Positions 47,164 to 63,276 are shown, counted from the stretch's first letter. The stretch is DNA of 64,000 nucleotides from an uncultured Chloroflexia bacterium (GCA_963697305.1 CAVONO010000014.1:3338-67337); one strand, 5' to 3'. The notes: generated by a model from the sequence alone, not told the origin. Numbers and translations are program-made.

Positions 47164-49185
47164 ATGAATTTCGCTAAATTACTTGGGGCGGCCATCCTTC
47201 TGATCTTGCTTGTCAATAGAATTCCAGCATCTTTGGCCCAGGCCGATCTTGAGATCAAATTGAAGAACCGCAGCTTCGTGCCGCAGACGAGCGGGGCGAT
47301 GCGCGTAGCAGGGAGCAACGGGGCCGGCAGGCAGCATGTCATTTTGCAGTTTGCTGAACTTCCCGATCCGGAAATATTGGCGCAGTATGGTATTCAGCCG
47401 CTCAACTATATTCCTGATAATGCGATCATGGCTTCCGTTCCCGCCGGCTTTGAGCAGCGCAGTGCACCCGGCGTTCGTTGGATGGGACAGCTATTAGCGA
47501 CGGACAAAATCAGCGCCTATGTAAGCAAGCAGTTGGAAATGATGGCTGCAGATCAGCAGGTCACGCTGCTCGTGGAAGCGCACCCGGATGTGGATTCGCA
47601 GACGCTGGCTTCGCTCGCGGTCAGGGCCGGCGGCACATTCAACAGCCATCCCGCCCTGCCTGGCCATTTGGGGCTGGTCACGGGCACGCGGGAAGTGTTC
47701 CAGCAGCTTGCGCTTGACGAGCGCATTGCCTGGATCACGGCGGCAAGCGACGAGCTGGTGAACGGCGAAGCAGTATACTACTGCCCTGGACCTATTACAG
47801 AGTTTGGGCCGGTTGCTAATTATGTCGTTCAGGGCGATGGATGGGATGGGCCAGGGCTGGGTTCCGCAGCTCTAACCTATCATTTCCTCAATGGTACGCC
47901 TGACATTGGTGGATCGGGTGAAGAGGGAGCGGTGAGAGACGCGCTTGCCGTGTGGGCTAGTTACGTTGATCTCTCCTTTAGCGAAACGGGCACGGCGGGG
48001 CTTACGCGCTCGCTAGACATTCTGTGGGCAACGGGATCGCATGGCGATCCATACCCTTTTGATGGTCCGAGCGGAATATTGGCACATGCCTATTTTCCAT
48101 CACCACCCAATTCGGAAACGATCGCCGGTGATATCCATTTTGACGACGACGAAAACTGGTCGCTCAACACCCACATTCATATGTTTACAGTTGCGCTGCA
48201 TGAATCAGGTCATTCCCTGGGTCTGGCACATTCTGATGTTCCCGGGTCAGTGATGTATCCTTCTTATAGTGTAGCGGTGACAGACCTTCAGCCGGATGAT
48301 GTAGCGGGCATCCGCTCACTATATAGCGATAGTGGGAGCACAGATCCTGCACCTGACCCGCCTGTCTTGAACAGCATCTCCAACAGTGACGGAGATGGGA
48401 GTTTCACGGTAAGTTGGCCCAGCGTCGCCACCGCCAGCAGTTACACCTTACAGGAGTGGCACGACGGTGGGAGTTGGAACACGATTTACAGCGGGAACAG
48501 CAGCAGCCAGAATATCAACGGCCGTAGCTCAGGGGAATGGTGCTATCGTGCATTGGCTTCCAATACTGGGGGCGACAGCGGCTGGAGCAATACGCAGTGC
48601 GCGACGGTTACGGAGCTTGCGCCTGGCGCGCCCTTTTTGAAGAGCATCGCTAATAGCGACGGGGATGGGACCTATGCGGTAAGTTGGTCCATCATCGCCA
48701 ACGCCACCAGCTACAGCTTACAGGAGCAGCACGATAACGGTATCTGGAACACAATTTACAACGGCGGCGGCAGCAGCCAGAGCATCAACGGCCGTAGCCC
48801 GGGTGAATACTGTTATCGCGTACTGGCTGCCAATGGCGGAGGGGGCAGCGCCTGGAGCAATATGGTGTGCACGACGGTTACGGTGGATGTCGAACCATGC
48901 TATCTTCTGACGCGCGAGCATACGGGATTCGGCAGCGATCCAATAGCCACTCCTGCGCACTCGCCAGCATGTCCGATAGATCAGTACAACGCCGGAACCC
49001 TAATCAATCTGAGCGCCACGCCTGATTCGGGATGGTACGTGAGCGGCTGGAGCCGGACCACAAATGATGCCAGCACGGCCATCGTTAACAGCATCACAAT
49101 GCCGGCCCAAAACCATTCCATAGCGGTGCATTACGCCTTCAACGCAAGCGACTTTCATTTCATACCTTTTGTCTTGAAAGGGTAG
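47164..49185 (+). CDS. Secreted matrixin-type (M10) zinc metalloprotease with two FN3-like repeats and a C-terminal beta domain
   Basis: A signal peptide, then the metzincin motif HESGHSLGLAHS with the Met-turn SVMYP. Two ~90-aa repeats follow (SNSDGDGSFTVSW... and ANSDGDGTYAVSW...). Confidence 0.85.
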   Translation: MNFAKLLGAAILLILLVNRIPASLAQADLEIKLKNRSFVPQTSGAMRVAGSNGAGRQHVILQFAELPDPEILAQYGIQPLNYIPDNAIMASVPAGFEQRSAPGVRWMGQLLATDKISAYVSKQLEMMAADQQVTLLVEAHPDVDSQTLASLAVRAGGTFNSHPALPGHLGLVTGTREVFQQLALDERIAWITAASDELVNGEAVYYCPGPITEFGPVANYVVQGDGWDGPGLGSAALTYHFLNGTPDIGGSGEEGAVRDALAVWASYVDLSFSETGTAGLTRSLDILWATGSHGDPYPFDGPSGILAHAYFPSPPNSETIAGDIHFDDDENWSLNTHIHMFTVALHESGHSLGLAHSDVPGSVMYPSYSVAVTDLQPDDVAGIRSLYSDSGSTDPAPDPPVLNSISNSDGDGSFTVSWPSVATASSYTLQEWHDGGSWNTIYSGNSSSQNINGRSSGEWCYRALASNTGGDSGWSNTQCATVTELAPGAPFLKSIANSDGDGTYAVSWSIIANATSYSLQEQHDNGIWNTIYNGGGSSQSINGRSPGEYCYRVLAANGGGGSAWSNMVCTTVTVDVEPCYLLTREHTGFGSDPIATPAHSPACPIDQYNAGTLINLSATPDSGWYVSGWSRTTNDASTAIVNSITMPAQNHSIAVHYAFNASDFHFIPFVLKG

Positions 49186-50321: not shown

Positions 50322-51218
50322 ATGAAGAAGGCAACACGGCAGCACACAAGAGCCCACACTAAACAGCTGGCTCTAAGAACGATTTTCCAACAGGAGGCGA
50401 TCAGCCGCGCAGATATCGCGCGCGTTACGCACCTGACCCGCACTGCGGTGTCTCATATCGTCTCCGAACTTATCGCCGAAGGTCTTATCGAAGAATCGGG
50501 ACTTGGTCCTCCGGCGGCGGAAAACCGCCGGTGATACTCGAGGTTGTGCGGCATTCAAGGAATTTGATCGGCGCCGACCTGGCGAACAGCGCGTTTCATG
50601 GGGATGTTTTCGATTTGCGTGGCAACCTTATCCAGCGTATCGATCTGCCCGTGCGAGATAAGAATGGGATGCAGGCGTTGGAACTTGTCACACAGCTGAT
50701 CGACACCCTGCTGGAATCTTGTAATGGCCCAGTGTTAGAAATTGGCCATGTGCGCGTGGTAAAACAAGGGACTTTATGCTTATGCGGGCAGAGGGGCTGT
50801 TACTGCAGTCAGTTCGCGTGCCCTTATCAAAAAGGCCAAAGTGCTGTTCCAGGATAATCGCAACTCAACGCTGCAACAGCCTGTTACTTCATCAGAAGAG
50901 ATCACAATCGATATCGTCTTGCAGGCGTTTAGGGCTGGTAACGAAGCGATCAGACTGATGATCATCGAGGTCGGCCAATTTCTAGGCATCGCCGTGGCAC
51001 ATTTGGTAGGTGCGCTCAACATCCAACATATCTTCATCGCAGGTAGTGTGGCCCGTTTCGGCGAGACCCTTTTGGATTCCATTCGCTCTGAAGTGCTTCA
51101 ACGCACTATGTCCATTCTTGCCGATAATAACCGTTCAGTGTTCAGTCAACTTGGCCAGGATATCGTCATGCTGGGCGCTGCGTCGCACCTATTGACCAAC
51201 GAGTTGGGATTAACTTGA
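50322..51218 (+). pseudogene. ROK-family transcriptional repressor with two frameshifts and a ~0.3-kb internal deletion
   Basis: The wHTH ISRADIARVTHLTRTAVSHIVSELIAEGLI is in frame 0. GGGKPPVILEV... follows in another frame after ~50510. GPVL is joined directly to EIGHVRVVKQGTLCLCGQRGC, so about 110 aa expected between the GIGIG and GEIGH regions are missing. A second shift lies near 50808, before AVSSRALIKKAK... Confidence 0.7.
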
Positions 51219-51392: not shown

Positions 51393-54008
51393 ATGTTAAA
51401 GAAAGCGTTTATTGTGTTGACAGCTCTGTTAATTTTGGCCTTGATGCTCGCCGCTTGTGGCGGCGGCGCAACAGAAGAACCAAGCACGACCAGCGATGAC
51501 ACCAGCGTATCTTCCGAAGAAACAGCGGCCCTAGAGGCAGCACCTACCGAAGAAGCGGCGCCCGCCGAAGAAGCAGCGCCATCTGGCGAAAAAGTTACCC
51601 TGACCATTGAAAGCTGGCGCAATGATGACCTGCCCATCTGGCAGGATCTGATTATTCCCGCCTTCAATGCCGAGCACCCAGACATTGAAGTCATCTTTTC
51701 GCCTTCCGCCCCAGCAGAATATAATGGCGCTTTGAATACGCGGCTGGAAGGTGGTGTGGCTGGCGATCTAATCACCTGCCGTCCCTTTGATGCCTCTCTG
51801 GCTCTCTTCGAACAGGGTCACCTCGCTTCTCTGAATGACCTGGAGGGGATGGCCAACTTTGGTTCAGTCGCCAAATCCGCCTGGGTTACCGACGATGGTT
51901 CCGATGCTTTCTGCGTGCCCATGGCCTCTGTTATCCACGGCTTCATCTACAACAAGGACATCTTTGATGAACTGGGCTTGAGCGAGCCAGCCACGGTCGA
52001 CGAGTTCTATGCCGTTCTGGACGCCGTTCAGGAGGCTGGTTACACAGCACTGGATATGGGCACGGCCGATCAATGGGAAGCGGCGACAATGGGCTACCAG
52101 AATATCGGTCCCAACTACTGGCGCGGTGAAGAGGGCCGTTTAGCCCTGATCAGCGGTGAAGCGAAGTTCACCGACCCGGAACATGTTGCTGTGTGGAATG
52201 AATTGGCCAAATGGGGACCCTATCTGGCCAGTGGCTACCAGGCCCAGACCTATCCCGATTCGCAAAATCTATTCACCTTGGGCGAAACTGCCATCTACCC
52301 GGCCGGCTCTTGGGACATAACCACTTTCAATAACCTGGCCGATTTCGAGATGGGCGCCTTCCCGCCGCCCGTGGTCAATGCTGGCGATACCTGCTACATC
52401 AGCGACCACACCGACATCGCGATTGGCATGAACACCGCGACGCCCAATCCGGAAGCGGCCAAGACATTCTTGAACTGGGTGGCGACGGCTGAGTTTGCCG
52501 AGCTGTACAGCAATGCCCTGCCTGGTTTCTTCTCCCTGGCTGATGTCGATATTACACTCGAAGACCCGTTGGCCCAGACTTTCCTGGATTGGCGTGGTGA
52601 TTGTGAATCGACCATCCGCAACTCCTACCAGATTCTGTCTCGCGGCGAGCCTAATTTGGAAAACGAGTTGTGGCGCGTCAGTGCCCAGGTCATAAACGGC
52701 GACATCACCCCCGAAGAGGGTGCGCAGCAGATTCAAGATGGCATGGATTCCTGGTATACCCCCAGTGAAGGTGCCTCTGATGTGGCGGAAGCGGCCGTTG
52801 CCGATGCCGGCGCTGAGAGCAGCGCCGACCTATCAGGAAGCCTGGTCATCGAAAGCTGGCGCAATGATGACCTGCCCATCTGGGAAGATTCGATTATTCC
52901 AGCATTCAACGTCCACTATCCCAACATCGAAGTTGAATTCGCGCCTGCTGCCCCAGCAGAATATAATGGCGCTTTGAATACGCGGCTGGAAGGTGGTGTG
53001 GCTGGCGATCTAATCACCTGCCGTCCCTTTGATGCCTCTCTGGCTCTCTTCGAACAGGGTCACCTCGCTTCTCTGAATGACCTGGAGGGGATGGCCAACT
53101 TTGGTTCAGTCGCCAAATCCGCCTGGGTTACCGACGATGGTTCCGATGCTTTCTGCGTGCCGATGGCCTCTGTTATCCACGGCTTCATCTACAACAAGGA
53201 CATCTTTGATGAACTGGGCTTGAGCGAGCCAGCCACGGTCGACGAGTTCTATGCCGTTCTGGACGCCGTTCAGGAGGCTGGTTACACAGCACTGGATATG
53301 GGCACGGCCGATCAATGGGAAGCGGCGACAATGGGCTACCAGAATATTGGTCCCAACTACTGGCGCGGTGAAGAGGGCCGTTTAGCCCTGATCAGCGGTG
53401 AAGCGAAGTTCACCGACCCGGAACATGTTGCTGTGTGGAATGAATTGGCCAAATGGGGACCCTATCTGGCCAGTGGCTACCAGGCCCAGACCTATCCCGA
53501 TTCGCAAAATTTATTCACCTTGGGCGAAACTGCCATCTACCCGGCCGGCTCTTGGGACATAACCACTTTCAATAACCTGGCCGATTTCGAGATGGGTGCC
53601 TTCCCGCCGCCCGTGGTCAATGCTGGCGATACCTGTTACATCAGCGACCACACCGACATCGCCCTGGGTATGAATACCGCCAGTGAAAACCAGGAAGCAG
53701 CGCGTGCTTTCCTCAACTGGGTGGCGACGGCTGAGTTTGCCGAGCTGTACAGCAATGCCCTGCCTGGTTTCTTCTCCCTGGCTGATGTCGATATTACACT
53801 CGAAGACCCGTTGGCCCAGACTTTCCTGGATTGGCGTGGTGATTGTGAATCGACCATCCGCAACTCCTACCAGATTCTGTCTCGCGGCGAGCCTAATTTG
53901 GAAAACGAGTTGTGGCGCGTCAGTGCCCAGGTCATAAACGGCGACATCACCCCCGAAGAGGGTGCGCAGCAGATTCAAGATGGCATGGATTCCTGGTATA
54001 CTCCCTAA
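51393..54008 (+). CDS. Sugar ABC transporter substrate-binding lipoprotein with two complete tandem SBP modules (871 aa)
   Basis: AGGAGA RBS and lipobox LAAC. Two ~390-aa family-1 SBP modules are joined by an acidic linker, with a 1242-nt (414-codon) period. Confidence 0.85.
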   Translation: MLKKAFIVLTALLILALMLAACGGGATEEPSTTSDDTSVSSEETAALEAAPTEEAAPAEEAAPSGEKVTLTIESWRNDDLPIWQDLIIPAFNAEHPDIEVIFSPSAPAEYNGALNTRLEGGVAGDLITCRPFDASLALFEQGHLASLNDLEGMANFGSVAKSAWVTDDGSDAFCVPMASVIHGFIYNKDIFDELGLSEPATVDEFYAVLDAVQEAGYTALDMGTADQWEAATMGYQNIGPNYWRGEEGRLALISGEAKFTDPEHVAVWNELAKWGPYLASGYQAQTYPDSQNLFTLGETAIYPAGSWDITTFNNLADFEMGAFPPPVVNAGDTCYISDHTDIAIGMNTATPNPEAAKTFLNWVATAEFAELYSNALPGFFSLADVDITLEDPLAQTFLDWRGDCESTIRNSYQILSRGEPNLENELWRVSAQVINGDITPEEGAQQIQDGMDSWYTPSEGASDVAEAAVADAGAESSADLSGSLVIESWRNDDLPIWEDSIIPAFNVHYPNIEVEFAPAAPAEYNGALNTRLEGGVAGDLITCRPFDASLALFEQGHLASLNDLEGMANFGSVAKSAWVTDDGSDAFCVPMASVIHGFIYNKDIFDELGLSEPATVDEFYAVLDAVQEAGYTALDMGTADQWEAATMGYQNIGPNYWRGEEGRLALISGEAKFTDPEHVAVWNELAKWGPYLASGYQAQTYPDSQNLFTLGETAIYPAGSWDITTFNNLADFEMGAFPPPVVNAGDTCYISDHTDIALGMNTASENQEAARAFLNWVATAEFAELYSNALPGFFSLADVDITLEDPLAQTFLDWRGDCESTIRNSYQILSRGEPNLENELWRVSAQVINGDITPEEGAQQIQDGMDSWYTP
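51609..54002 (+). repeat. In-frame tandem duplication, period 1242 nt
   Basis: 51609-52760 matches 52851-54002. The two copies are almost identical except for two divergent patches (~51642-51705 and ~52425-52470) and 5 isolated synonymous differences. Confidence 0.9.
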
Positions 54009-54220: not shown

Positions 54221-55147
54221 ATGCAATCGCAATCTCCCCGAAAACGCAAGTCGTTTCCAACACACATCATCGTCTTCTTGGCCCCGGCCGTCATTGTCTA
54301 CACGGTCTTTATGATCTTCCCATTGCTGGATTCACTGCGTCTAAGTTTCGTTGAAAATGAGACAGGAATATTCATAGGGATGCAAAACTATATTACCTTG
54401 CTGACCAACCAATTGTGGGCAGACCAATTTTGGAATTCGTTTTGGAATAATGTCAAATTTTTCATCATCAATATGCTGGTGCAAAATCCAGTCGCTCTTT
54501 TTTTAGCAGCCTTATTAAGCAGCCGCACCTTACGTTGGACGAGCGGCTATCGCACCCTCATTTTCGTGCCGACTGTCTTGTCGGTGGTCATCATCGGTTT
54601 CATCTGGCAGCTCATTTTGAGTCCCCTCTGGGGAATCGCCGAAAGTTTTATGACCTTCTTTGGGATCGGCCACTTATTCCAACCCTGGTTAGGTCTGGAA
54701 AGCACTGCTCTAACCACGATCTCTTTGATATCGGTCTGGCAATTTGTTGGAATTCCGCTGATGCTGTTTTACGCAGCGCTCATTGGCATCCCGGAAGAAC
54801 TGATTGAAGCGGCTTATGTTGATGGGGCCACAACCTGGACCGTCTTCTGGAGAGTGAAATTTCCCCTCATTCTACCGACGGTTGGCATAGTGACCATCCT
54901 CACATTTGTCGGCAATTTCAATGCCTTTGACCTTATCTACACCATCAAGGGTGCTTTGGCCGGGCCAAATTTCTCAACAGATATCATGGGCACCATGTTT
55001 TTCCGCACATTCTTCGGCCAGCAGCTACAGCTGGGCAATGCCGCAATGGGCTCGACCGTGGCCGCCATGATGCTGTTAATTATTTTGATCGGCGTACTGA
55101 TTTATCTGGTAGGCTGGCAGCGCCGCATCCATACATACGAGATCTAA
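54221..55147 (+). CDS. Sugar ABC transporter permease (MalF/UgpA-like)
   Basis: The EAA loop EAAYVDGATTWTVFWRVKFPL, with six TM segments. Confidence 0.9.
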   Translation: MQSQSPRKRKSFPTHIIVFLAPAVIVYTVFMIFPLLDSLRLSFVENETGIFIGMQNYITLLTNQLWADQFWNSFWNNVKFFIINMLVQNPVALFLAALLSSRTLRWTSGYRTLIFVPTVLSVVIIGFIWQLILSPLWGIAESFMTFFGIGHLFQPWLGLESTALTTISLISVWQFVGIPLMLFYAALIGIPEELIEAAYVDGATTWTVFWRVKFPLILPTVGIVTILTFVGNFNAFDLIYTIKGALAGPNFSTDIMGTMFFRTFFGQQLQLGNAAMGSTVAAMMLLIILIGVLIYLVGWQRRIHTYEI

Positions 55148-55189: not shown

Positions 55190-56032
55190 ATGAGTGCATC
55201 AACTATCCGTCATCGCTTCACTGAATCAATCATACCCCATACTGCTCTGCTAATTTATACGGCCATCGCTTTGTTTCCGATTTTCCTGGTCGTTATCAAC
55301 TCATTCAAAGCACGCAAAGCGATTTTCCGCCAACCACTGGCGCTGCCCAATGCCGAGACTTTCAGCCTGGAAGGATATTTAACTGTCTGGGAAAGGGCCG
55401 GTTTTCCGCTCTATTTTCGCAACAGTTTGGTCGTCACGCTTGCTTCGATCTTCTTTATTTTGCTCTTTGGCGCCATGGCAGCTTTCGCCCTGTCCGAATA
55501 CAAGTTTCGCGGCAATACGCTGCTCGGTTTGTATCTGGCGTTGGGCATCATGATCCCCATTCGTTTGGGCACAGTAGGTATACTGCGCTTGGTAGCATCC
55601 ATGGGCCTCGTGAACAATCTTATGGGTTTGATATTCGTCTATATTGCTCAGGGCCTGCCACTGACGGTGTTTGTCCTGCAAAGTTTTATGAGCCATGTGC
55701 CCAGGGAAATGAAGGAGGCCGCCCGCGTGGATGGCGCCAGCGAATACCGCATCTTTGGTCTCGTGCTGCCCATGGTGCGGCCCGCGGTGGCGACCGTGGC
55801 CGTATTCGTCATGATCCCGATCTGGAATGACCTCTGGTTCCCTTTGATATTGGCGCCTGGCGAGTCGACGAAGACGGTCACCCTCGGTGCGCAGCAGTTC
55901 TTGGGGCAGTTTGTTAGTGATTGGAACGCTGTTCTCTCTTCATTGACACTGGCGATGATCCCCGTTCTGATTCTATATATTATCTTCTCGCGGCAGTTGA
56001 TTAGAGGTATTACGAGTGGAGCGATAAAGTGA
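55190..56032 (+). CDS. Sugar ABC transporter permease (MalG/UgpE-like)
   Basis: The EAA loop EAARVDGASEYRIFGLVLPMVRP. Confidence 0.9.
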   Translation: MSASTIRHRFTESIIPHTALLIYTAIALFPIFLVVINSFKARKAIFRQPLALPNAETFSLEGYLTVWERAGFPLYFRNSLVVTLASIFFILLFGAMAAFALSEYKFRGNTLLGLYLALGIMIPIRLGTVGILRLVASMGLVNNLMGLIFVYIAQGLPLTVFVLQSFMSHVPREMKEAARVDGASEYRIFGLVLPMVRPAVATVAVFVMIPIWNDLWFPLILAPGESTKTVTLGAQQFLGQFVSDWNAVLSSLTLAMIPVLILYIIFSRQLIRGITSGAIK

Positions 56033-57066
56033 GCAGTCATATACGTGTAGGAATTGTGGGCACAGGAGTTATGGGGCGAACCCACGCTGCGGCCTGGGCG
56101 GTAACGGGCGCAACCATTGCCGGTTTCGTTTCCAAAGATGAAGCATCGGCACAGGAGTTGGCCACCCAGCACCAGGGGCAGGTTTATGGGGATTTGCCAT
56201 CGTTGATCGCCGATGTGGATGTAGTTGATGTTTGTGCACCAACGCACCGCCATCATGAAATTGTGCTGGCGGCGGCCGCCGCCGGCAAACATGTGGTTTG
56301 TGAAAAGCCGCTGGCGCGAACCGTGGCGCAAGGGCAAGAGATGATCGCCGCTTGTGAAGAGGCAGGGGTGAAACTGATGGTGGCCCACGTCGTGCGTTTC
56401 TTTCCTGAGTATGCCCAAGCGAAGGCACAGGTAGAGGGCGGGGCTATCGGACAGACGGCCGTGTTGCGCCTGACGCGCGGCTCCTTCCAGCCCAAGAAGG
56501 CGGTGGATAACTGGTTTATCGATTACGAGAAGTCTGGCGGCATGATGCTGGACTTGATGATTCACGACCTGGATTACGCGCGATGGGTGGCGGGTGAAGT
56601 GGACATGGTCTTCGCCAAGAAAATCAGCAGCAGCCATCCAGGCAGCAGCGTGGACCATGGTTTAGCTATTCTCAAGCATCGTAACGGCACGATCTCCCAT
56701 GTGGAGGGATCTTGGGCGTATCCCCCGCCCCTGTTCCGCACACGATTTGAAATCTCCGCTTCTAATGGCTTGATCCAGTTCGATTCGGATGATACGGCAG
56801 CGATTACTCTGCACCTGCGCCAGGCTGAAGAGGAAGGTATCCCAGATGTACCGCTGCCGGGCAGTCCTCTGAATGAAAGTCCTTATACAACGCAGATCAA
56901 AGCGTTCTATGCCTGCCTGGCCAACGATACGGCCGTTCCGGTCACAGGAGCCGATGGGCTAGCCGCTTTACAGATCGCGCTCGCGGCCATCGAATCGGCC
57001 GAAACTGGGCGACCCGTTGCGCTGCAACCCTTACCCGAAGTCGCAGCGCAGGAGGTAGTACAATGA
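56029..57066 (+). CDS. Gfo/Idh/MocA family oxidoreductase
   Basis: The Rossmann N-terminus IRVGIVGTGVMG and the VVCEKPLA motif. Its start overlaps the stop of the upstream permease. Confidence 0.85.
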   Translation: MSSHIRVGIVGTGVMGRTHAAAWAVTGATIAGFVSKDEASAQELATQHQGQVYGDLPSLIADVDVVDVCAPTHRHHEIVLAAAAAGKHVVCEKPLARTVAQGQEMIAACEEAGVKLMVAHVVRFFPEYAQAKAQVEGGAIGQTAVLRLTRGSFQPKKAVDNWFIDYEKSGGMMLDLMIHDLDYARWVAGEVDMVFAKKISSSHPGSSVDHGLAILKHRNGTISHVEGSWAYPPPLFRTRFEISASNGLIQFDSDDTAAITLHLRQAEEEGIPDVPLPGSPLNESPYTTQIKAFYACLANDTAVPVTGADGLAALQIALAAIESAETGRPVALQPLPEVAAQEVVQ

Positions 57067-58055
57067 GAATCGGAATCATGAGCTTTGCCCATCACCATGC
57101 CGAAGCATACATCCACAACGTGCGCACTATTCCCGAGCTAGCGTTGATGGGCATTGCGGATGAGGATATGGAACGCGGCCGTTCCTATGCTGATCGCTTC
57201 AACACACACCTCTATGCGAATTACCAGGCGCTGCTCGACGACAACCCGGACGGCGTCATTGTCTGTTCCGAAAATGTCAAACACCGCCCCCTGGTGGAAA
57301 TGGCAGCCAGAGCCGGCGCGCACGTGCTCTGTGAAAAACCGCTGGCTACGACGCTTGAAGATGCGCAGGCGATGATCGACAGTTGCCGCCAGGCGGGTGT
57401 GATTTTGATGACCGCCTTCCCCATGCGCTTCAGCGCGCCCATCACGCAGGTCAAAGCGCAGCTAGATAAAGGTGCGTTGGGTCACGTATACTGCCTCAAT
57501 ACGACGAACCAGGGACGAATGCCCATTCACGAACGGCGTTGGTTTGTGGACCCGGAATTGGCCGGAGGCGGGGCCGTGACTGACCATACGGTGCACCTGG
57601 CAGACGTGCTGCGCTGGTACCTGAACAGTGAAGTGACGGAGGTATTCGCTCTGACCAATCGTATCTTGCATGCGGATCTGGTCAGCGTGGAAACGGCGGG
57701 GCTGTTGATGCTGACCTTCGCCGACGGCACCTTCGCCACGATCGATTGCAGCTGGAGCAAGCCGCTTAATTATCCCACCTGGGGCGGCCTGACCATGGAA
57801 TTGATCAGCGAGCGTGGATTGACGGTTGTGGATGCATTCAGCCAGAACCTGACCGTACACCGGCAAGAACCGGCTGCTTCAGCCTGGACGTATTGGGGCT
57901 CGGATGCAGACCGGGGGATGGTAGAGGAGTTCGCGGCGGCTATGCGTGAAGGGCGACCAGCGATGATCAGCGGCGAAGATGGATATAAAGCATTGGAGAT
58001 CGTCCTGGCTGCTTATGAATCGGCTGCCACAGGTCAGGCAATTAGCTTAAGATAA
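57063..58055 (+). CDS. Gfo/Idh/MocA family oxidoreductase (second paralogue)
   Basis: The VLCEKPLA motif. ATGA overlap with the upstream gene. Confidence 0.85.
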   Translation: MRIGIMSFAHHHAEAYIHNVRTIPELALMGIADEDMERGRSYADRFNTHLYANYQALLDDNPDGVIVCSENVKHRPLVEMAARAGAHVLCEKPLATTLEDAQAMIDSCRQAGVILMTAFPMRFSAPITQVKAQLDKGALGHVYCLNTTNQGRMPIHERRWFVDPELAGGGAVTDHTVHLADVLRWYLNSEVTEVFALTNRILHADLVSVETAGLLMLTFADGTFATIDCSWSKPLNYPTWGGLTMELISERGLTVVDAFSQNLTVHRQEPAASAWTYWGSDADRGMVEEFAAAMREGRPAMISGEDGYKALEIVLAAYESAATGQAISLR

Positions 58056-59188: not shown

Positions 59189-59598
59189 ATTGAACCAGAT
59201 ACCGAACAGGGGTTCAATCTCAGTTAAAAATGAAGGACGTCGCACAAGGTGCCCTTTTCGGCATCTCAAATGCAAGCAGGCGACATCTTAGGGTGCCTGC
59301 TACTCCAACCCATTTGAAACACACCCATTACCAAATCGGCCAAAAATAGGCGATAATTGGGCGATTGTGCGATGAGGGAAAGGGCCCATTAGCGCAGGTC
59401 TTAGCGCTGCCGGAATCTCCCCACACGCAATAACATGCAAAATGATTAGCAGGCGTTAAGGGAAAAAACCTTGACTCGTGGTTGCTTTTATAATGATAAG
59501 TTCGTGTGCTGGACAGGAGCGATCCAGCCAGCCTCTGTCGGCGAGTTGATCATGGGTGGGCTTCCTTTGCTCCAGGAAGTTGCCAATGCGAGGTGTAC

Positions 59599-61392
59599 GT
59601 GACAGGAGAGAAGTCTCGAAGGCGAGCAAATGTAGATGTATACCGGCGCCTTTTAGGTTATTTACGGCCGTATTCCAAACAGGTCATTTTGGCGTACACG
59701 GCGATGCTGGCCGTGACAGGGCTCAACCTCGTCGTGCCTTTGATCATCAAGAGAGCTATCGACGATGGTCTGGCTGCGGGCAATGCGCAGGCGCTGCTTA
59801 GGGCGGGCGTGGCCATCCTGGGCGTGGCCCTGGTGCGCGGGATCGCCGGCTTCGGCCAACGCTACTACGGCGAGTGGCTCTCGCACCGTACCGGCTATGA
59901 TCTACGCAATCGTTTCTACGACAGCGTGCAGTACCAACCTTTCTCATTTCATGATCGCAGCCATACCGGGGATATGATGAGTCGCGCTACTAGCGATATC
60001 TCGGAAACTGAGCGATTTACGGGAATTGGCCTGGCGGACTTACTGGCCACGATTATGCTGCTGACAGGCGTGATCATCGCCATGCTGCTGGAAGCGCCGC
60101 GCCTGGCCTTAATTGCGCTTTTGCCGTTCCCGGTGCTCATATTCGCTACAATTCGCTTTGGCAGCATCATACGGCCGATGTTCCAACGTATCCAGGAACA
60201 AATGGGCGTGCTCTCGACGACGATGCAGGAGAGTATGACCGGTATCAACGTGGTCAAAGCGTTCTCGCGCGAGCCCTATGAACTGGAAAAATTCGATAAG
60301 GAAAACGATTTGTGGTTTGAGCAGCGCCATCGCGTGATCCGGGCTTGGGCCAACAACTGGCCCTTATTCTCCTTCCTGGTGGCCTTGAGCATCTTTCTGC
60401 TGCTCTGGTTTGGCGGCCCGCTGGCCATGGCGGGGGCGGTCACCGCAGGCACACTCTTCGCCTTGATCTCTTATGTGCTGATGCTCAATGGTCCGGTGCA
60501 GCGGCTTGGGTTCCTGGTTAACCTGGCAGCCACGGCCGGCGCCAGCGCCTCGCGCGTATTCGAAATCATGGATACGCCCAGCGAACTTGTGGAGAAAGAA
60601 AATGCAAAAATCGCGGACCAGATCGCTGGGGACGTGCGCTTCGAGGGCGTTTGCTTTGCTTACCAGTCGGGCGTCAAGATTTTGAGCGACGTGTCATTTT
60701 ATGCCGAGCCAGGGCAAAAGATCGCTCTGATCGGGCCCACCGGTTCGGGAAAATCGACTGTGACCAATCTCATCTTGCGCTTCTATGATGTGAGCGACGG
60801 CCGTGTCCTGGTAGATGGCGTGGACGTGCGCGATTGGCAGTTGCACAGCCTGCGCTCCCATATCGGCATCGTGCAGCAGGCTCCCTTCTTGTTCAGCCAG
60901 TCTGTTGCCGAGAATATCGCTTACGGCCGTGCCGATGCCTCGGATGAAGAGATCATAGCGGCGGCCAAAGCGGCGCACGCCGACAAGTTCATCACTGAGA
61001 TGGCTGATGGATATAACACACGCGTCGGCGAGAGAGGTGTGACCTTGAGCGGCGGCCAGAAGCAGCGCGTGGCCATTGCACGGGCGCTGTTGACTGATCC
61101 GCGTATTTTGATCCTGGACGATTCGACGAGCAGCGTGGACACGGAGACGGAATATTTGATCCAGGAAGCACTCGAGGTGCTGATGGCAGGGCGCACGACC
61201 TTTATCATCGCCCAGAGATTGCAAACGCTGAAGAGCGCAGATGTAATCTTGGTGTTGGACAACGGCCGTATTGTGGAACGGGGCACGCATGATACTTTAC
61301 TGGCCAGGAAGGGTTTATACCAGCAGATTTACGACTTGCAGCTGAAAGATCAGGAAGAGTTCGTCGCTTTGCAAAGGCAGATGGGGGTATAG
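59599..61392 (+). CDS. ABC exporter, fused permease-ATPase (heterodimer partner 1)
   Basis: Six TM segments, Walker A GPTGSGKST, signature LSGGQKQRVAIARAL, Walker B ILILDD. The ORF is open from GTG 59506. I prefer GTG 59599, which has GAGG upstream. Confidence 0.85.
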   Translation: MTGEKSRRRANVDVYRRLLGYLRPYSKQVILAYTAMLAVTGLNLVVPLIIKRAIDDGLAAGNAQALLRAGVAILGVALVRGIAGFGQRYYGEWLSHRTGYDLRNRFYDSVQYQPFSFHDRSHTGDMMSRATSDISETERFTGIGLADLLATIMLLTGVIIAMLLEAPRLALIALLPFPVLIFATIRFGSIIRPMFQRIQEQMGVLSTTMQESMTGINVVKAFSREPYELEKFDKENDLWFEQRHRVIRAWANNWPLFSFLVALSIFLLLWFGGPLAMAGAVTAGTLFALISYVLMLNGPVQRLGFLVNLAATAGASASRVFEIMDTPSELVEKENAKIADQIAGDVRFEGVCFAYQSGVKILSDVSFYAEPGQKIALIGPTGSGKSTVTNLILRFYDVSDGRVLVDGVDVRDWQLHSLRSHIGIVQQAPFLFSQSVAENIAYGRADASDEEIIAAAKAAHADKFITEMADGYNTRVGERGVTLSGGQKQRVAIARALLTDPRILILDDSTSSVDTETEYLIQEALEVLMAGRTTFIIAQRLQTLKSADVILVLDNGRIVERGTHDTLLARKGLYQQIYDLQLKDQEEFVALQRQMGV

Positions 61393-61395
61393 ACC

Positions 61396-63276
61396 ATGTC
61401 TACTCACAATGGATCCAGTACAGACCGTTCGCGTCGCGGTTCGCGTCTGTTGCGGCGCGATGAGAGCATTGAAGAGCAGATCGGAGACCTGCTACCCGAG
61501 GAGGATGACCAGCTAGGCAAGGCGTATGACGGTCGCTTGGTGCGTCGCCTTTCGGTCTATTTACAGCCGTATAAGGCTCGCCTGATTCTGGCTATTGTGC
61601 TGATGATCATCAGTTCGCTTCTAGCGGTCTCGCAGCCGTTGATCATCGGCCTAGCTATCGACAAAGGTATCCGCGCCGGCTCGATGACGGCGCTGCGCAC
61701 CTGGTCCCTCATCTTCCTGGTGGCTGCAGTGGGAGCATGGATAACCAATCGTTGGCGTATCGCCATTATGGCCTACGTGGGAACGGCCGTGGTCGCCGAT
61801 TATCGCAGCCACCTTTTCCGCCACTTACACACCTTGTCGCTCAGTTTCTTCAACAACTACAGCGTGGGTCGCCTGATGAGCCGGCTGATCAGTGATATCG
61901 GCGTGGTGCAGGATTTTATCACCTGGTCGATCACTGGCTTGTTCCGCTCGGTTTTCACGCTCGCGGGCATCGTGATCGCCATGTTTTTACTCAATTGGCA
62001 GTTGGCGCTGGTTACTTTTTCGGTGCTGCCGCTGATGGCCATTTTGACCAATTATTGGCGCAAACATGTACGTATCGCCTACCGGGCCACGCGCCAGCGC
62101 CTTTCGCTGATCAACGGCTACTTGAACGAATCGATCACCGGCATCCGGGTCACGAAAAGCTTCACACGCGAGGAGCGCAACTACCAATATTTCAACAATC
62201 TGAACCACTCCTACTTTAACGCCAATGTCGATGCTTCGCGCCTCTCGGCCATATTCTTCCCCAGCGTTGACCTGATGGGTTCGCTGGCGACGGCGCTGGT
62301 CGTGGGTGTAGGTGGCTGGCTGGTATTGGGCGACGCGCTGACGGCGGGAACGCTGGTCGCCTTCGTCTTGTATGTGGATCATTTTTTCGAGCCGATTCGG
62401 GAACTGGCACAACGTTATAATGTCTTCCAGGCCACGATGGCCGCCAGCGAACGGGTATTTGGTCTATTGGATATCGAACCGGCTATCGCCGACGCGCCTG
62501 AAGCAACGTCACTGCCTCGCATAAATGGACGGGTGGAGTTCCGCGATGTGAGCTTCGGTTACGATGATCGTACGCTGGTGCTGCAGGGGGTCAATCTAAG
62601 CGCGGAACCAGGACAGCGCATCGCTCTGGTGGGCGAAACGGGTGCGGGGAAGAGCACAATCGTACGCCTGTTGGCCCGTTTTTTCGACGTTAGTAGTGGA
62701 AAACTACTGATCGACGGCTTTGATATTCGCCAGATTACACAAGAGAGCTTGCGCCAACAGCTGGGTATCGTCTTGCAGGATACGTTCTTATTCAAGGGCA
62801 GCATTATGGAAAATATCCGCTACGGCCGTCTCGATGCCACTGATGAAGAAGTGATCGACGCGGCTAAAGCGGTGGGGGCACACGAGTTCATCAGCAAGAT
62901 GGTGGATGGTTATGAGACGGATGTCGGGGAGAATGGCGGGAACTTGAGTGTCGGCCAGCGGCAGATCATCTCTTTCGCACGGGCACTGCTGGCGGACCCC
63001 AGTATTCTCGTCCTCGATGAAGCCACGAGCAGCGTGGATACGGCGACGGAAAGGATTATCCAGGAAGCGATGGATACGCTGATGGCCGGGCGCACAAGTT
63101 TCGTCATCGCCCATCGTCTGAGCACGATAGTCACTGCGGATCAGATCGTGGTATTGGATAACGGCCGTATTGTGGAGCAAGGGTCGCACGAAGAGCTGCT
63201 GGGCGAGGAAGGGCGGTACTACAATCTGTACACCATGCAGTGGGCGCAGGAAGGATCGTCTTTTAGTGCCAATTGA
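61396..63276 (+). CDS. ABC exporter, fused permease-ATPase (heterodimer partner 2)
   Basis: Walker A GETGAGKST, signature LSVGQRQIISFARAL, Walker B ILVLDE. It starts 4 nt after the upstream stop. Confidence 0.9.
   Translation: MSTHNGSSTDRSRRGSRLLRRDESIEEQIGDLLPEEDDQLGKAYDGRLVRRLSVYLQPYKARLILAIVLMIISSLLAVSQPLIIGLAIDKGIRAGSMTALRTWSLIFLVAAVGAWITNRWRIAIMAYVGTAVVADYRSHLFRHLHTLSLSFFNNYSVGRLMSRLISDIGVVQDFITWSITGLFRSVFTLAGIVIAMFLLNWQLALVTFSVLPLMAILTNYWRKHVRIAYRATRQRLSLINGYLNESITGIRVTKSFTREERNYQYFNNLNHSYFNANVDASRLSAIFFPSVDLMGSLATALVVGVGGWLVLGDALTAGTLVAFVLYVDHFFEPIRELAQRYNVFQATMAASERVFGLLDIEPAIADAPEATSLPRINGRVEFRDVSFGYDDRTLVLQGVNLSAEPGQRIALVGETGAGKSTIVRLLARFFDVSSGKLLIDGFDIRQITQESLRQQLGIVLQDTFLFKGSIMENIRYGRLDATDEEVIDAAKAVGAHEFISKMVDGYETDVGENGGNLSVGQRQIISFARALLADPSILVLDEATSSVDTATERIIQEAMDTLMAGRTSFVIAHRLSTIVTADQIVVLDNGRIVEQGSHEELLGEEGRYYNLYTMQWAQEGSSFSAN

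Follow-up and report, generated by a model that had tools for sequence, protein, structure and literature searches.

The best described relatives of the protein considered here are the substrate receptors of carbohydrate ATP-binding cassette (ABC) importers of the CUT1 type, e.g. RafE of Streptococcus pneumoniae (2heu, 2i58), BlG16BP (4zs9) and NagB2 (7ehq), which carry one bilobed module per chain. In this work we describe a gene in which two such modules are joined. It lies at positions 51393 to 54008 of a 64,000-nucleotide (nt) stretch of DNA from an uncultured Chloroflexia bacterium (GCA_963697305.1, CAVONO010000014.1:3338-67337; "the window" below is this whole stretch, counted from its first letter). 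On a single lipid anchor the gene product carries two solute-binding protein (SBP) modules, each about 20-25% identical to the solved receptors and predicted to share their bilobed fold. The known CUT1 SBP lipoproteins also have in common with it their Pfam families, a lipobox signal and two BPD_transp_1 permease genes downstream.

The best functional analogy for two linked binding domains on one chain is GlnPQ. In this importer the tandem, covalently linked substrate-binding domains SBD1 and SBD2 serve one translocator, provide it with more binding sites and differ in specificity and affinity (PMC8025302). However, the GlnPQ domains are small amino-acid receptors of the SBP_bac_3 class; they are fused to the transmembrane domain, and the two have clearly diverged. 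Those described here are large sugar SBPs of the CUT1 type on a lipoprotein of their own, with the permease gene starting 213 nt downstream, and are kept near-identical. Membership of the GlnPQ class was considered and rejected, as both of its defining features are missing: the SBP open reading frame (ORF) stops at 54008, before the separate permease ORF that begins at 54221, and the domain type differs.

Near-identical tandem repeats within a single bacterial gene are known from the "periscope" surface proteins, such as Rib/alpha-C and SasG/Aap, where the repeats vary in copy number and are homogenised by recombination. Our protein resembles these in being a cell-surface protein with tandem repeats that are near-identical at the DNA level and variable in number (here two or three). 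That said, the periscope repeats are stalk domains of about 80-130 amino acids (aa) that deliver no ligand, whereas each repeat here is a complete transporter receptor of 390 aa. Between genes, the tufA/tufB pair and the rRNA operons are examples of concerted evolution. Concerted evolution by gene conversion is in fact recurrent among bacterial paralogues, including the tandem fla and mtrA genes (PMC6053082). As in our case, over long spans paralogues are more alike within than between genomes, and other features show that the duplication is ancient. The difference is that here the converting units are the two halves of one ORF, with two sharply bounded, position-orthologous segments that resist conversion. 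No ABC-transporter binding protein is mentioned in the text of that study (PMC6053082).

We searched the literature for tandem or fused CUT1 SBPs and found nothing relevant. The separate ingredients of the system all have precedents: CUT1 SBPs, tandem binding domains, concerted evolution, and mosaic islands under conversion. What the searched literature does not describe is their combination, namely a clade whose homotypic CUT1 lipoproteins have two or three modules and evolve in concert around two position-orthologous islands. Our reading, to which we give a probability of about 0.8, is that the gene encodes a lipid-anchored two-module CUT1 SBP, that the fusion is old and shared by a clade, and that its modules evolve in concert by recombination while two short segments ("islands") stay module-specific. 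The parts of the gene are as follows.

51393-54008, + strand: two-module solute-binding lipoprotein ORF, complete, 871 aa plus stop
About 10 nt 5′ of the ATG of this ORF, + strand: GGAG, resembling a ribosome-binding site in sequence
51393-51458, + strand: lipoprotein signal peptide, residues 1-22, MLKKAFIVLTALLILALMLAAC, with lipobox LAAC (from sequence and the conservation of Cys22)
51459-51596, + strand: disordered tether, residues 23-68, rich in Ala, Glu, Pro, Thr and Ser, outside the repeat and without similarity to the linker (predicted local distance difference test score, pLDDT, below 50 for residues 21-64)
51597-52763, + strand: module 1, complete CUT1/SBP_bac_1 domain, residues 69-457 (from Pfam, repeat comparison, structure model and Foldseek)
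51642-51707, + strand: island 1, module 1 copy, residues 84-105, partner of 52884-52949
52419-52472, + strand: island 2, module 1 copy, residues 343-360, partner of 53661-53714
52764-52838, + strand: linker, residues 458-482, SEGASDVAEAAVADAGAESSADLSG..., unique sequence without signal peptide or lipobox, like the linkers of relatives
52839-54005, + strand: module 2, complete CUT1/SBP_bac_1 domain, residues 483-871 (from Pfam, repeat comparison and structure model)
52884-52949, + strand: island 1, module 2 copy
53661-53714, + strand: island 2, module 2 copy

Judged from its sequence, the protein is a CUT1/SBP_bac_1 carbohydrate ABC substrate-binding lipoprotein. The whole ORF matches SBP_bac_1 (PF01547, 189 bits against a cut-off of 26) and SBP_bac_8 (PF13416, 190 bits against a cut-off of 27), in two stretches each. 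These two are the only Pfam matches above threshold in the SBP chain, which has no BPD_transp_1 domain. The lipoprotein signal was read off the sequence by eye, and its lipobox cysteine, Cys22, is invariant in 42 aligned homologues. In a step-1 offset scan the gene matches itself best at exactly 1242 nt; the first copy of the repeat runs from about 51599 to 52763 and the second from about 52841 to 54005, reaching the stop codon. The original prediction, made from the sequence of the window, had described two full SBP modules at a 1242-nt offset in one ORF behind a single lipoprotein signal, and the intact 871-aa ORF, the Pfam matches and the exact self-offset bear this out.

We compared the two copies over 51609-52759, a span of 1151 nt in which they differ at 50 positions. 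Forty-five of the differences lie inside the two islands, which together occupy 120 nt or 10% of the repeat, and five are spread across the remaining 1031 nt. When 50 differences were scattered at random, 2000 times over, the best pair of windows of the island sizes held a mean of 13 and never more than 19. The islands end abruptly, the copies being perfectly identical as far as their borders, and the longest exactly identical run between the copies is 287 nt. All five isolated differences (ccc/ccg, atc/att, cta/tta, ggc/ggt and tgc/tgt) are synonymous. They are exactly those that had been listed in the original prediction, to which we add a synonymous difference at 52760 (acc/act) and three differing bases at the 5′ edge of the repeat, 51603-51608, affecting codons 71 (T/V) and 72 (att/atc). 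Both diverged patches it had pointed out are likewise there, the second being slightly wider than it gave (52419-52472), and the peptide strings it quoted match the translation. At the amino-acid level the modules differ in the islands, by about 18 residues in all, and at one residue of the 5′ edge.

The proportions of synonymous (pS) and nonsynonymous (pN) differences, from Nei-Gojobori counts, separate these segments clearly. Below, WIN denotes the window's own gene, WIN_m1 and WIN_m2 its modules 1 and 2, and L001, L081 etc. the homologous loci in relatives. Within WIN, island 1 has a pS of 0.75 and a pN of 0.23, and island 2 a pS of 0.86 and a pN of 0.27. The core has a pS of 0.031 over 51708-52418 and of 0.015 over 52473-52763, with a pN of 0 in both. 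Because their synonymous sites are saturated, the islands must be old sequence rather than recently diversified sequence, and the WIN core was homogenised very recently. The earlier suggestion that both modules are under selection also holds up: the core differences are synonymous in 6 of 6 cases although synonymous sites make up only about 23% of the core (p about 1.4e-4 under neutrality), and therefore purifying selection has acted on both modules since they were last homogenised.

The closest genome locus, L001, allows the history of the islands and the core to be told apart. It lies on a 1.94-Mb contig of the metagenome-assembled genome (MAG) MFD03804.bin.2.153, encodes a protein of 87% identity and is syntenic with the window. 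WIN and L001 form one collinear alignment of 2568 nt at 77% nt identity, spanning both modules and the linker. The nucleotide identities of the segments are as follows.

Core: WIN_m1 against WIN_m2 99.5%; WIN against L001, same position, 79% (module 1) and 77% (module 2); other position, 77% (module 1) and 79% (module 2)
Island 1: within WIN 65%; WIN against L001, same position, 76% (module 1) and 82% (module 2); other position, 65% (module 1) and 61% (module 2)
Island 2: within WIN 59%; WIN against L001, same position, 82% (module 1) and 78% (module 2); other position, 61% (module 1) and 56% (module 2)

A quartet of WIN_m1, WIN_m2, L001_m1 and L001_m2 makes the same point with informative sites. 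In the core, 117 sites group the modules by genome, 0 by position and 0 crosswise. In island 1 the counts are 2 by genome, 10 by position and 0 crosswise, and in island 2 they are 0, 10 and 0, so that 20 of the 22 island sites group by position. This incongruence means that the duplication and the divergence of the islands are older than the split between WIN and L001 and that the core was homogenised later. Within-genome similarity above between-genome similarity, a duplication that precedes the split and incongruence that changes in a mosaic along the sequence are all found here, and the data support gene conversion between old paralogues, not a recent duplication. The first of the two explanations offered in the original prediction, conversion between older paralogues with islands kept different, thus agrees with the saturated islands, the core pS of about 0.02 and the quartet counts.

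Its second explanation was a very recent tandem duplication of one module, after which the two patches would have been locally replaced; rapid diversification of the patches may be taken together with it. The WIN core pS of 0.02-0.03 would, taken alone, fit such a young duplication. The islands do not: rapid adaptive change would not saturate synonymous sites as they are saturated here, and each copy has its positional orthologue in the corresponding module of the syntenic L001, whose same-position core pS is about 0.75. Nor does the rest of the gene, since both modules and the linker are collinear with L001 and like linkers are found in the homologues P0003, P0004, P0007, P0008 and P0009. We regard this explanation as very improbable.

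Conversion seems to have acted in the L001 lineage too. The same-position core pS between WIN and L001 is 0.73-0.79 and the pS between the two L001 cores is somewhat lower, at 0.64; therefore the L001 lineage was also homogenised after the split and then escaped. The direction of conversion cannot be read from these data. At sites where L001_m1 and L001_m2 differ, the WIN bases are interleaved (74/59/34) without tract structure, a pattern that fits post-split divergence within L001 and is uninformative on which module was the donor. A further donor copy was sought in the whole window by blastn and tblastn with the module and with each island, and only the two modules matched.

The two-module architecture extends well beyond WIN and L001. 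The original prediction had proposed a search of relatives for single-module orthologues. Our protein search finds these, and with them more than 30 two-module homologues (843-900 aa, 63-87% identity, 92-100% query coverage) and two three-module homologues, P0001 (1276 aa) and P0002 (1283 aa); several carry the same islands. The named sources of the homologues are Anaerolineales, Anaerolineae, Chloroflexi and Chloroflexia MAGs. Relatives share the boundaries of the repeat, and on this comparative sequence evidence the architecture is real and ancestral to a Chloroflexota (Anaerolineae-like) clade, not an artefact of assembly. The claim that tandem SBPs on one chain are rare thus holds in one sense and not in another. 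In the clade they are the norm. In the wider family they do appear rare, with two full module matches in 1 of the best 150 representatives of 50%-identity clusters, a weak gauge of prevalence because the known two-module proteins are not among the listed representatives.

Across 33 multi-module homologues the core and the islands again tell different stories. For 58 of the 66 modules the nearest neighbour of the core is the module's own partner. For the islands it is the own partner in 31 cases, the same-position module of another protein in 22 and an other-position module in 1. Differences between modules peak at the same two segments, in up to 15-18 of the 33 proteins per column and mostly in 8 or fewer elsewhere. 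Relatives range from those with uniformly diverged modules to those with identical ones, as the pS values between modules illustrate.

WIN: island 1 0.75, island 2 0.86, core 0.02
L081: island 1 0.78, island 2 0.77, core 0.05 (same mosaic as WIN)
L087: island 1 0.66, island 2 0, core 0 (island 1 only kept)
L083: island 1 0.26, island 2 0, core 0.02 (island 1 only kept)
L086: island 1 0, island 2 0.21, core 0.05 (island 2 only kept)
L085: island 1 0.61, island 2 0.67, core 0.28 (intermediate)
L001: island 1 0.77, island 2 0.69, core 0.64 (diverged throughout)
L084: island 1 0.55, island 2 0.67, core 0.57 (diverged throughout)
L002: island 1 0.14, island 2 0.48, core 0.51 (diverged except island 1)
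L082: island 1 0, island 2 0, core 0 (modules identical)

In a further locus, L003 (MAG MFD09964.bin.2.44), the modules are 10% diverged, with a peak of divergence at island 2. A 1-nt indel, at about 6180 in module 1 and 7415 in module 2, breaks the frame early in module 2 of this locus; the gene may be a true pseudogene, or the indel a sequencing error.

One could imagine that each lineage duplicated its module independently, with no need for gene conversion. Core trees do group the modules by genome, and the SBP gene has also been duplicated in tandem in Nitratireductor indicus, there as two separate genes of 81% amino-acid identity. Against it stand the island sites of WIN and L001, 20 grouping by position and 2 by genome, and the island nearest neighbours beyond the own partner, 22 from the same position and 1 from the other. 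The similar linkers across relatives, the syntenic locus and the shared repeat boundaries also speak against it. Independent duplication is contradicted for the WIN/L001 clade and may yet hold for more remote parts of the family; as an account of this gene we consider it extremely unlikely.

A different concern is that the assembly or its polishing has misled us, either because there is no second module or because the near-identity of the core comes from repeat collapse or consensus polishing. A near-identical tandem repeat of 1.2 kb is hard for short-read assembly, and the 100% identical modules of some relatives are suspicious for short-read assemblies. In WIN, however, the ORF is intact across the unique tether, linker and 3′ junctions, and isolated single-base differences are kept between the copies, with no identical run above 287 nt. 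More than 30 independent assemblies share this architecture, with the gene on contigs as large as 0.37-1.9 Mb (e.g. L001 at 1.9 Mb and L003 at 0.66 Mb), and the independent assembly of L081 has the same mosaic. A duplication error, moreover, could not yield islands that are position-orthologous with another genome. The comparative data largely remove this caveat, and we hold an artefact to be quite improbable.

Several points weigh against concerted evolution as we have described it, or at least temper it. Conversion is deduced from patterns in the sequence. The identity of the WIN core could be inflated by consensus polishing across the repeat. Repeat collapse may also have occurred in the assemblies behind some relatives with fully identical modules, such as L082, and behind L083, which has identical runs of 974-1170 nt.

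If concerted evolution is the right account, the following mechanism would explain the pattern. Homologous recombination between the 1242-nt direct repeats would repeatedly copy one module onto the other by non-reciprocal gene conversion, presumably of the RecA type, and unequal exchange between the repeats might occasionally yield three-module or single-module versions. The last homogenisation of the WIN core was very recent and stopped sharply at residues 84-105 and 343-360. The islands may persist through selection against converted variants, through dense mismatches that block the extension of heteroduplex, or through both. Each module would capture sugar and dock in turn on the single downstream permease pair. 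By analogy with GlnPQ, two modules per anchor would raise the capacity for capture and might widen or tune specificity.

The family shows variations on this theme that are worth recording. In the three-module P0001, modules 2 and 3 both bear the second-module island signature when inspected by eye, and in P0002 island 1 is homogenised over all three modules. P0039-P0052 are Anaerolineae proteins of about 880-900 aa in which a module is joined to a distantly related second SBP module (a 26% match in P0039); therefore heterotypic SBP-SBP fusions also occur in Chloroflexota. A group of representatives of about 1000-1270 aa (P0198, P0200, P0211, P0213, P0217, P0226, P0245, P0259 and P0263) has a single C-terminal copy of the SBP module behind 600-800 other residues. 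The Nitratireductor indicus genes mentioned above (L027, 5710-8558, strain C115) adjoin each other, and each has a single module and its own signal peptide. This alphaproteobacterial isolate carries an unfused tandem duplicate of the family, of 81% protein and 80% DNA identity. Single-module orthologues of 62-70% identity (L006-L080) occur in many Alphaproteobacteria (Paracoccus, Mesorhizobium, Rhizobium, Pseudochrobactrum), in some Spirochaetota MAGs and in Thermanaerothrix, and such identity across phyla suggests horizontal transfer of the transporter.

The question that these results raise most directly is what keeps the islands apart, and between selection and a neutral barrier we judge the matter roughly even. 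The structural setting is the natural place to start. An AlphaFold model of the protein, from which we took secondary structure and confidence, has two well-folded bilobed modules with a class II periplasmic-binding-protein fold (mean pLDDT 83.5, predicted template-modelling score 0.51). Its low-confidence stretches are the disordered tether, residues 21-64, and a segment of the linker, residues 471-479. In Foldseek searches the modules match RafE, NagB2, AcbH and BlG16BP with E-values of 1e-19 to 1e-22 and target-normalised template-modelling (TM) scores of 0.76-0.84. No solved chain among the Foldseek matches covers both modules (query-normalised TM at most 0.39). A sequence search of the PDB returned remote matches only, the best of about 25% identity, with no close ligand-bound homologue among them, and scores against the NCBIfam equivalog models were far under the cut-offs.

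In the predicted structure island 1 takes up the C-terminal two-thirds of a helix (residues 80-94), a loop and a strand (98-104), and island 2 the end of a strand (338-347), a loop (348-352) and the start of a helix (353-363). Both islands flank the invariant motifs ESWRNDD..IW and ISDHTDI.GMN without containing them. By what we take to be their homology to MalE, both would lie in lobe I, the N-terminal lobe, distal from the cleft, with island 2 presumably the INAASPNKELAKEFL segment that follows the second hinge crossing; we offer this as a lead rather than a result.

It is possible, though we put it somewhat below even odds, that the 18 or so residues by which the islands differ in lobe I have been selected to make first and second modules do different jobs, and that selection holds them against the continual homogenisation of the rest. 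The modules might differ in the ligands they bind or in affinity, or in how they interact with tether, linker or permease. When windows of the island sizes were slid along 45 non-redundant single-module orthologues, 43% proved at least as variable as island 1 and 34% at least as variable as island 2, so the islands are not the least constrained segments of the family. The ratio of island to core pN is 0.9-2.7 between same-position orthologues, and 3.3-6.8 between modules where the core is old. Residue classes also follow position. In column 101 all 15 first modules have V, I or L, and 12 of the 15 second modules have a polar residue; in column 351 first modules mostly have P and second modules E or A; in column 358 first modules mostly have T or I and second modules A; column 94 is H in second modules; and column 97 is D in first and N in second.

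Selection has its difficulties, too. The signature columns vary in single-module orthologues, column 101 being V, T, K, N or E, and because of this variability they are probably surface positions. In several lineages one or both islands have been erased and the gene is retained. The island pN/pS is below 1, with no sign of positive selection and with saturated synonymous sites. The excess of amino-acid divergence in the islands could come from their greater age alone, and that the same islands are found again and again follows from shared descent.

Exchange mediated by RecA is known to be impeded by dense mismatches. The islands may accordingly be neutral relics that diverged once, by import from a diverged homologue or during a lapse of conversion, and whose mismatches have since stopped the extension of heteroduplex, an account that we consider a serious contender at not far short of even odds. 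It keeps the framework of concerted evolution, differing only on why the islands persist, and makes their amino-acid differences immaterial. The points just raised against selection speak for it: signature positions that tolerate many residues in single-module orthologues, islands lost in some lineages and modules fully identical in others, a pN/pS well below 1, and the same islands in many lineages through shared descent. The sharp edges, with perfect identity up to them, fit it as well. It is less easily squared with islands that are not unusually variable among orthologues, that have 3-7 times the between-module amino-acid divergence of the core in genomes with old cores, and that keep position-specific residue classes across many proteins. 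Theory that is reportedly due to Teshima and Innan in 2004 holds that, under continuous conversion, islands of divergence form around selected sites, and a neutral origin would need a special founding event instead. Modelling of HMA4 is also reported to describe mosaic divergence islands under conversion plus selection (bioRxiv 10.1101/2025.10.29.685298). Such cases share with ours a homogenised background with short islands of high divergence. They differ in being eukaryotic gene pairs, whereas our islands are intragenic and bacterial, and selection on them is a candidate explanation.

The genes around the SBP gene place it in a conserved operon, as listed here.

50322-51176, + strand: ROK-family regulator gene lying upstream of the SBP gene, degraded by at least 2 frameshifts and the internal loss of about 92 aa
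54221-55147, + strand: ABC permease subunit 1, BPD_transp_1, presumed docking partner of both modules (from Pfam and conserved gene order)
55190-56032, + strand: ABC permease subunit 2, BPD_transp_1 (from Pfam)
56029-58055, + strand: two Gfo/Idh/MocA oxidoreductase genes, 56029-57066 and 57063-58055, conserved together with the transporter in relatives

The order ROK, SBP, two permeases and two Gfo/Idh/MocA genes is kept in seven further loci, some of which add a PIG-L gene. The operon has no ATPase gene, so the ATPase is presumably encoded elsewhere. The ROK gene is intact in L001, L081, L082, L084 and L085. When an intact 398-aa orthologue was used as a tblastn query, the window returned four pieces in two frames, with about 92 internal residues missing. 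The SBP operon may thus be deregulated in this genome through degradation of its regulator. In L081, L082 and L086, genes for a PIG-L deacetylase and an unannotated protein of about 465 aa lie between the ROK and SBP genes, and GATase1_like and SIS genes are nearby; the window has none of these beside its SBP gene. The co-conserved Gfo/Idh/MocA pair, PIG-L, SIS and ROK genes hint at a modified or amino sugar as the substrate.

Two further features of the window deserve a mention. A 673-aa secreted protein with the zinc-metalloprotease motif HESGHSLGLAHS is encoded at 47164-49185 (+ strand). It has two similar tandem domains of about 90 aa (…NSDGDGSFTVSWPSV…CYRALASN… and …NSDGDGTYAVSWSII…CYRVLAAN…) and no NCBIfam match. 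On the same strand, 59506-61392 and 61396-63276 are adjoining genes for MsbA-like ABC exporters of 628 and 626 aa, each a permease fused to an ATPase. They probably form a heterodimeric exporter and seem unconnected with the SBP operon.

For those who work with such genomes, this family has a practical use. Near-identical repeats of this size within a gene are prone to collapse or homogenisation during assembly, and the family can therefore serve as a check on the quality of MAGs. It also provides a clean bacterial case of intragenic concerted evolution. Relatives span genes that were recently homogenised, that have partly or fully escaped, and whose islands have been erased, and this range allows the dynamics of conversion to be dated and modelled.

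In summary, a whole clade of Chloroflexota shows that an ABC importer can have as its sugar receptor a chain of two or three homotypic modules held by one lipid anchor, a design for which the unrelated GlnPQ class is the only functional precedent. If the islands are indeed selected, they would represent intragenic selection against gene conversion in a bacterium, with islands of divergence that have persisted through very long periods of evolution. Nature would then have run an experiment in this family, one that singles out the few residues by which otherwise identical transporter receptors are distinguished.

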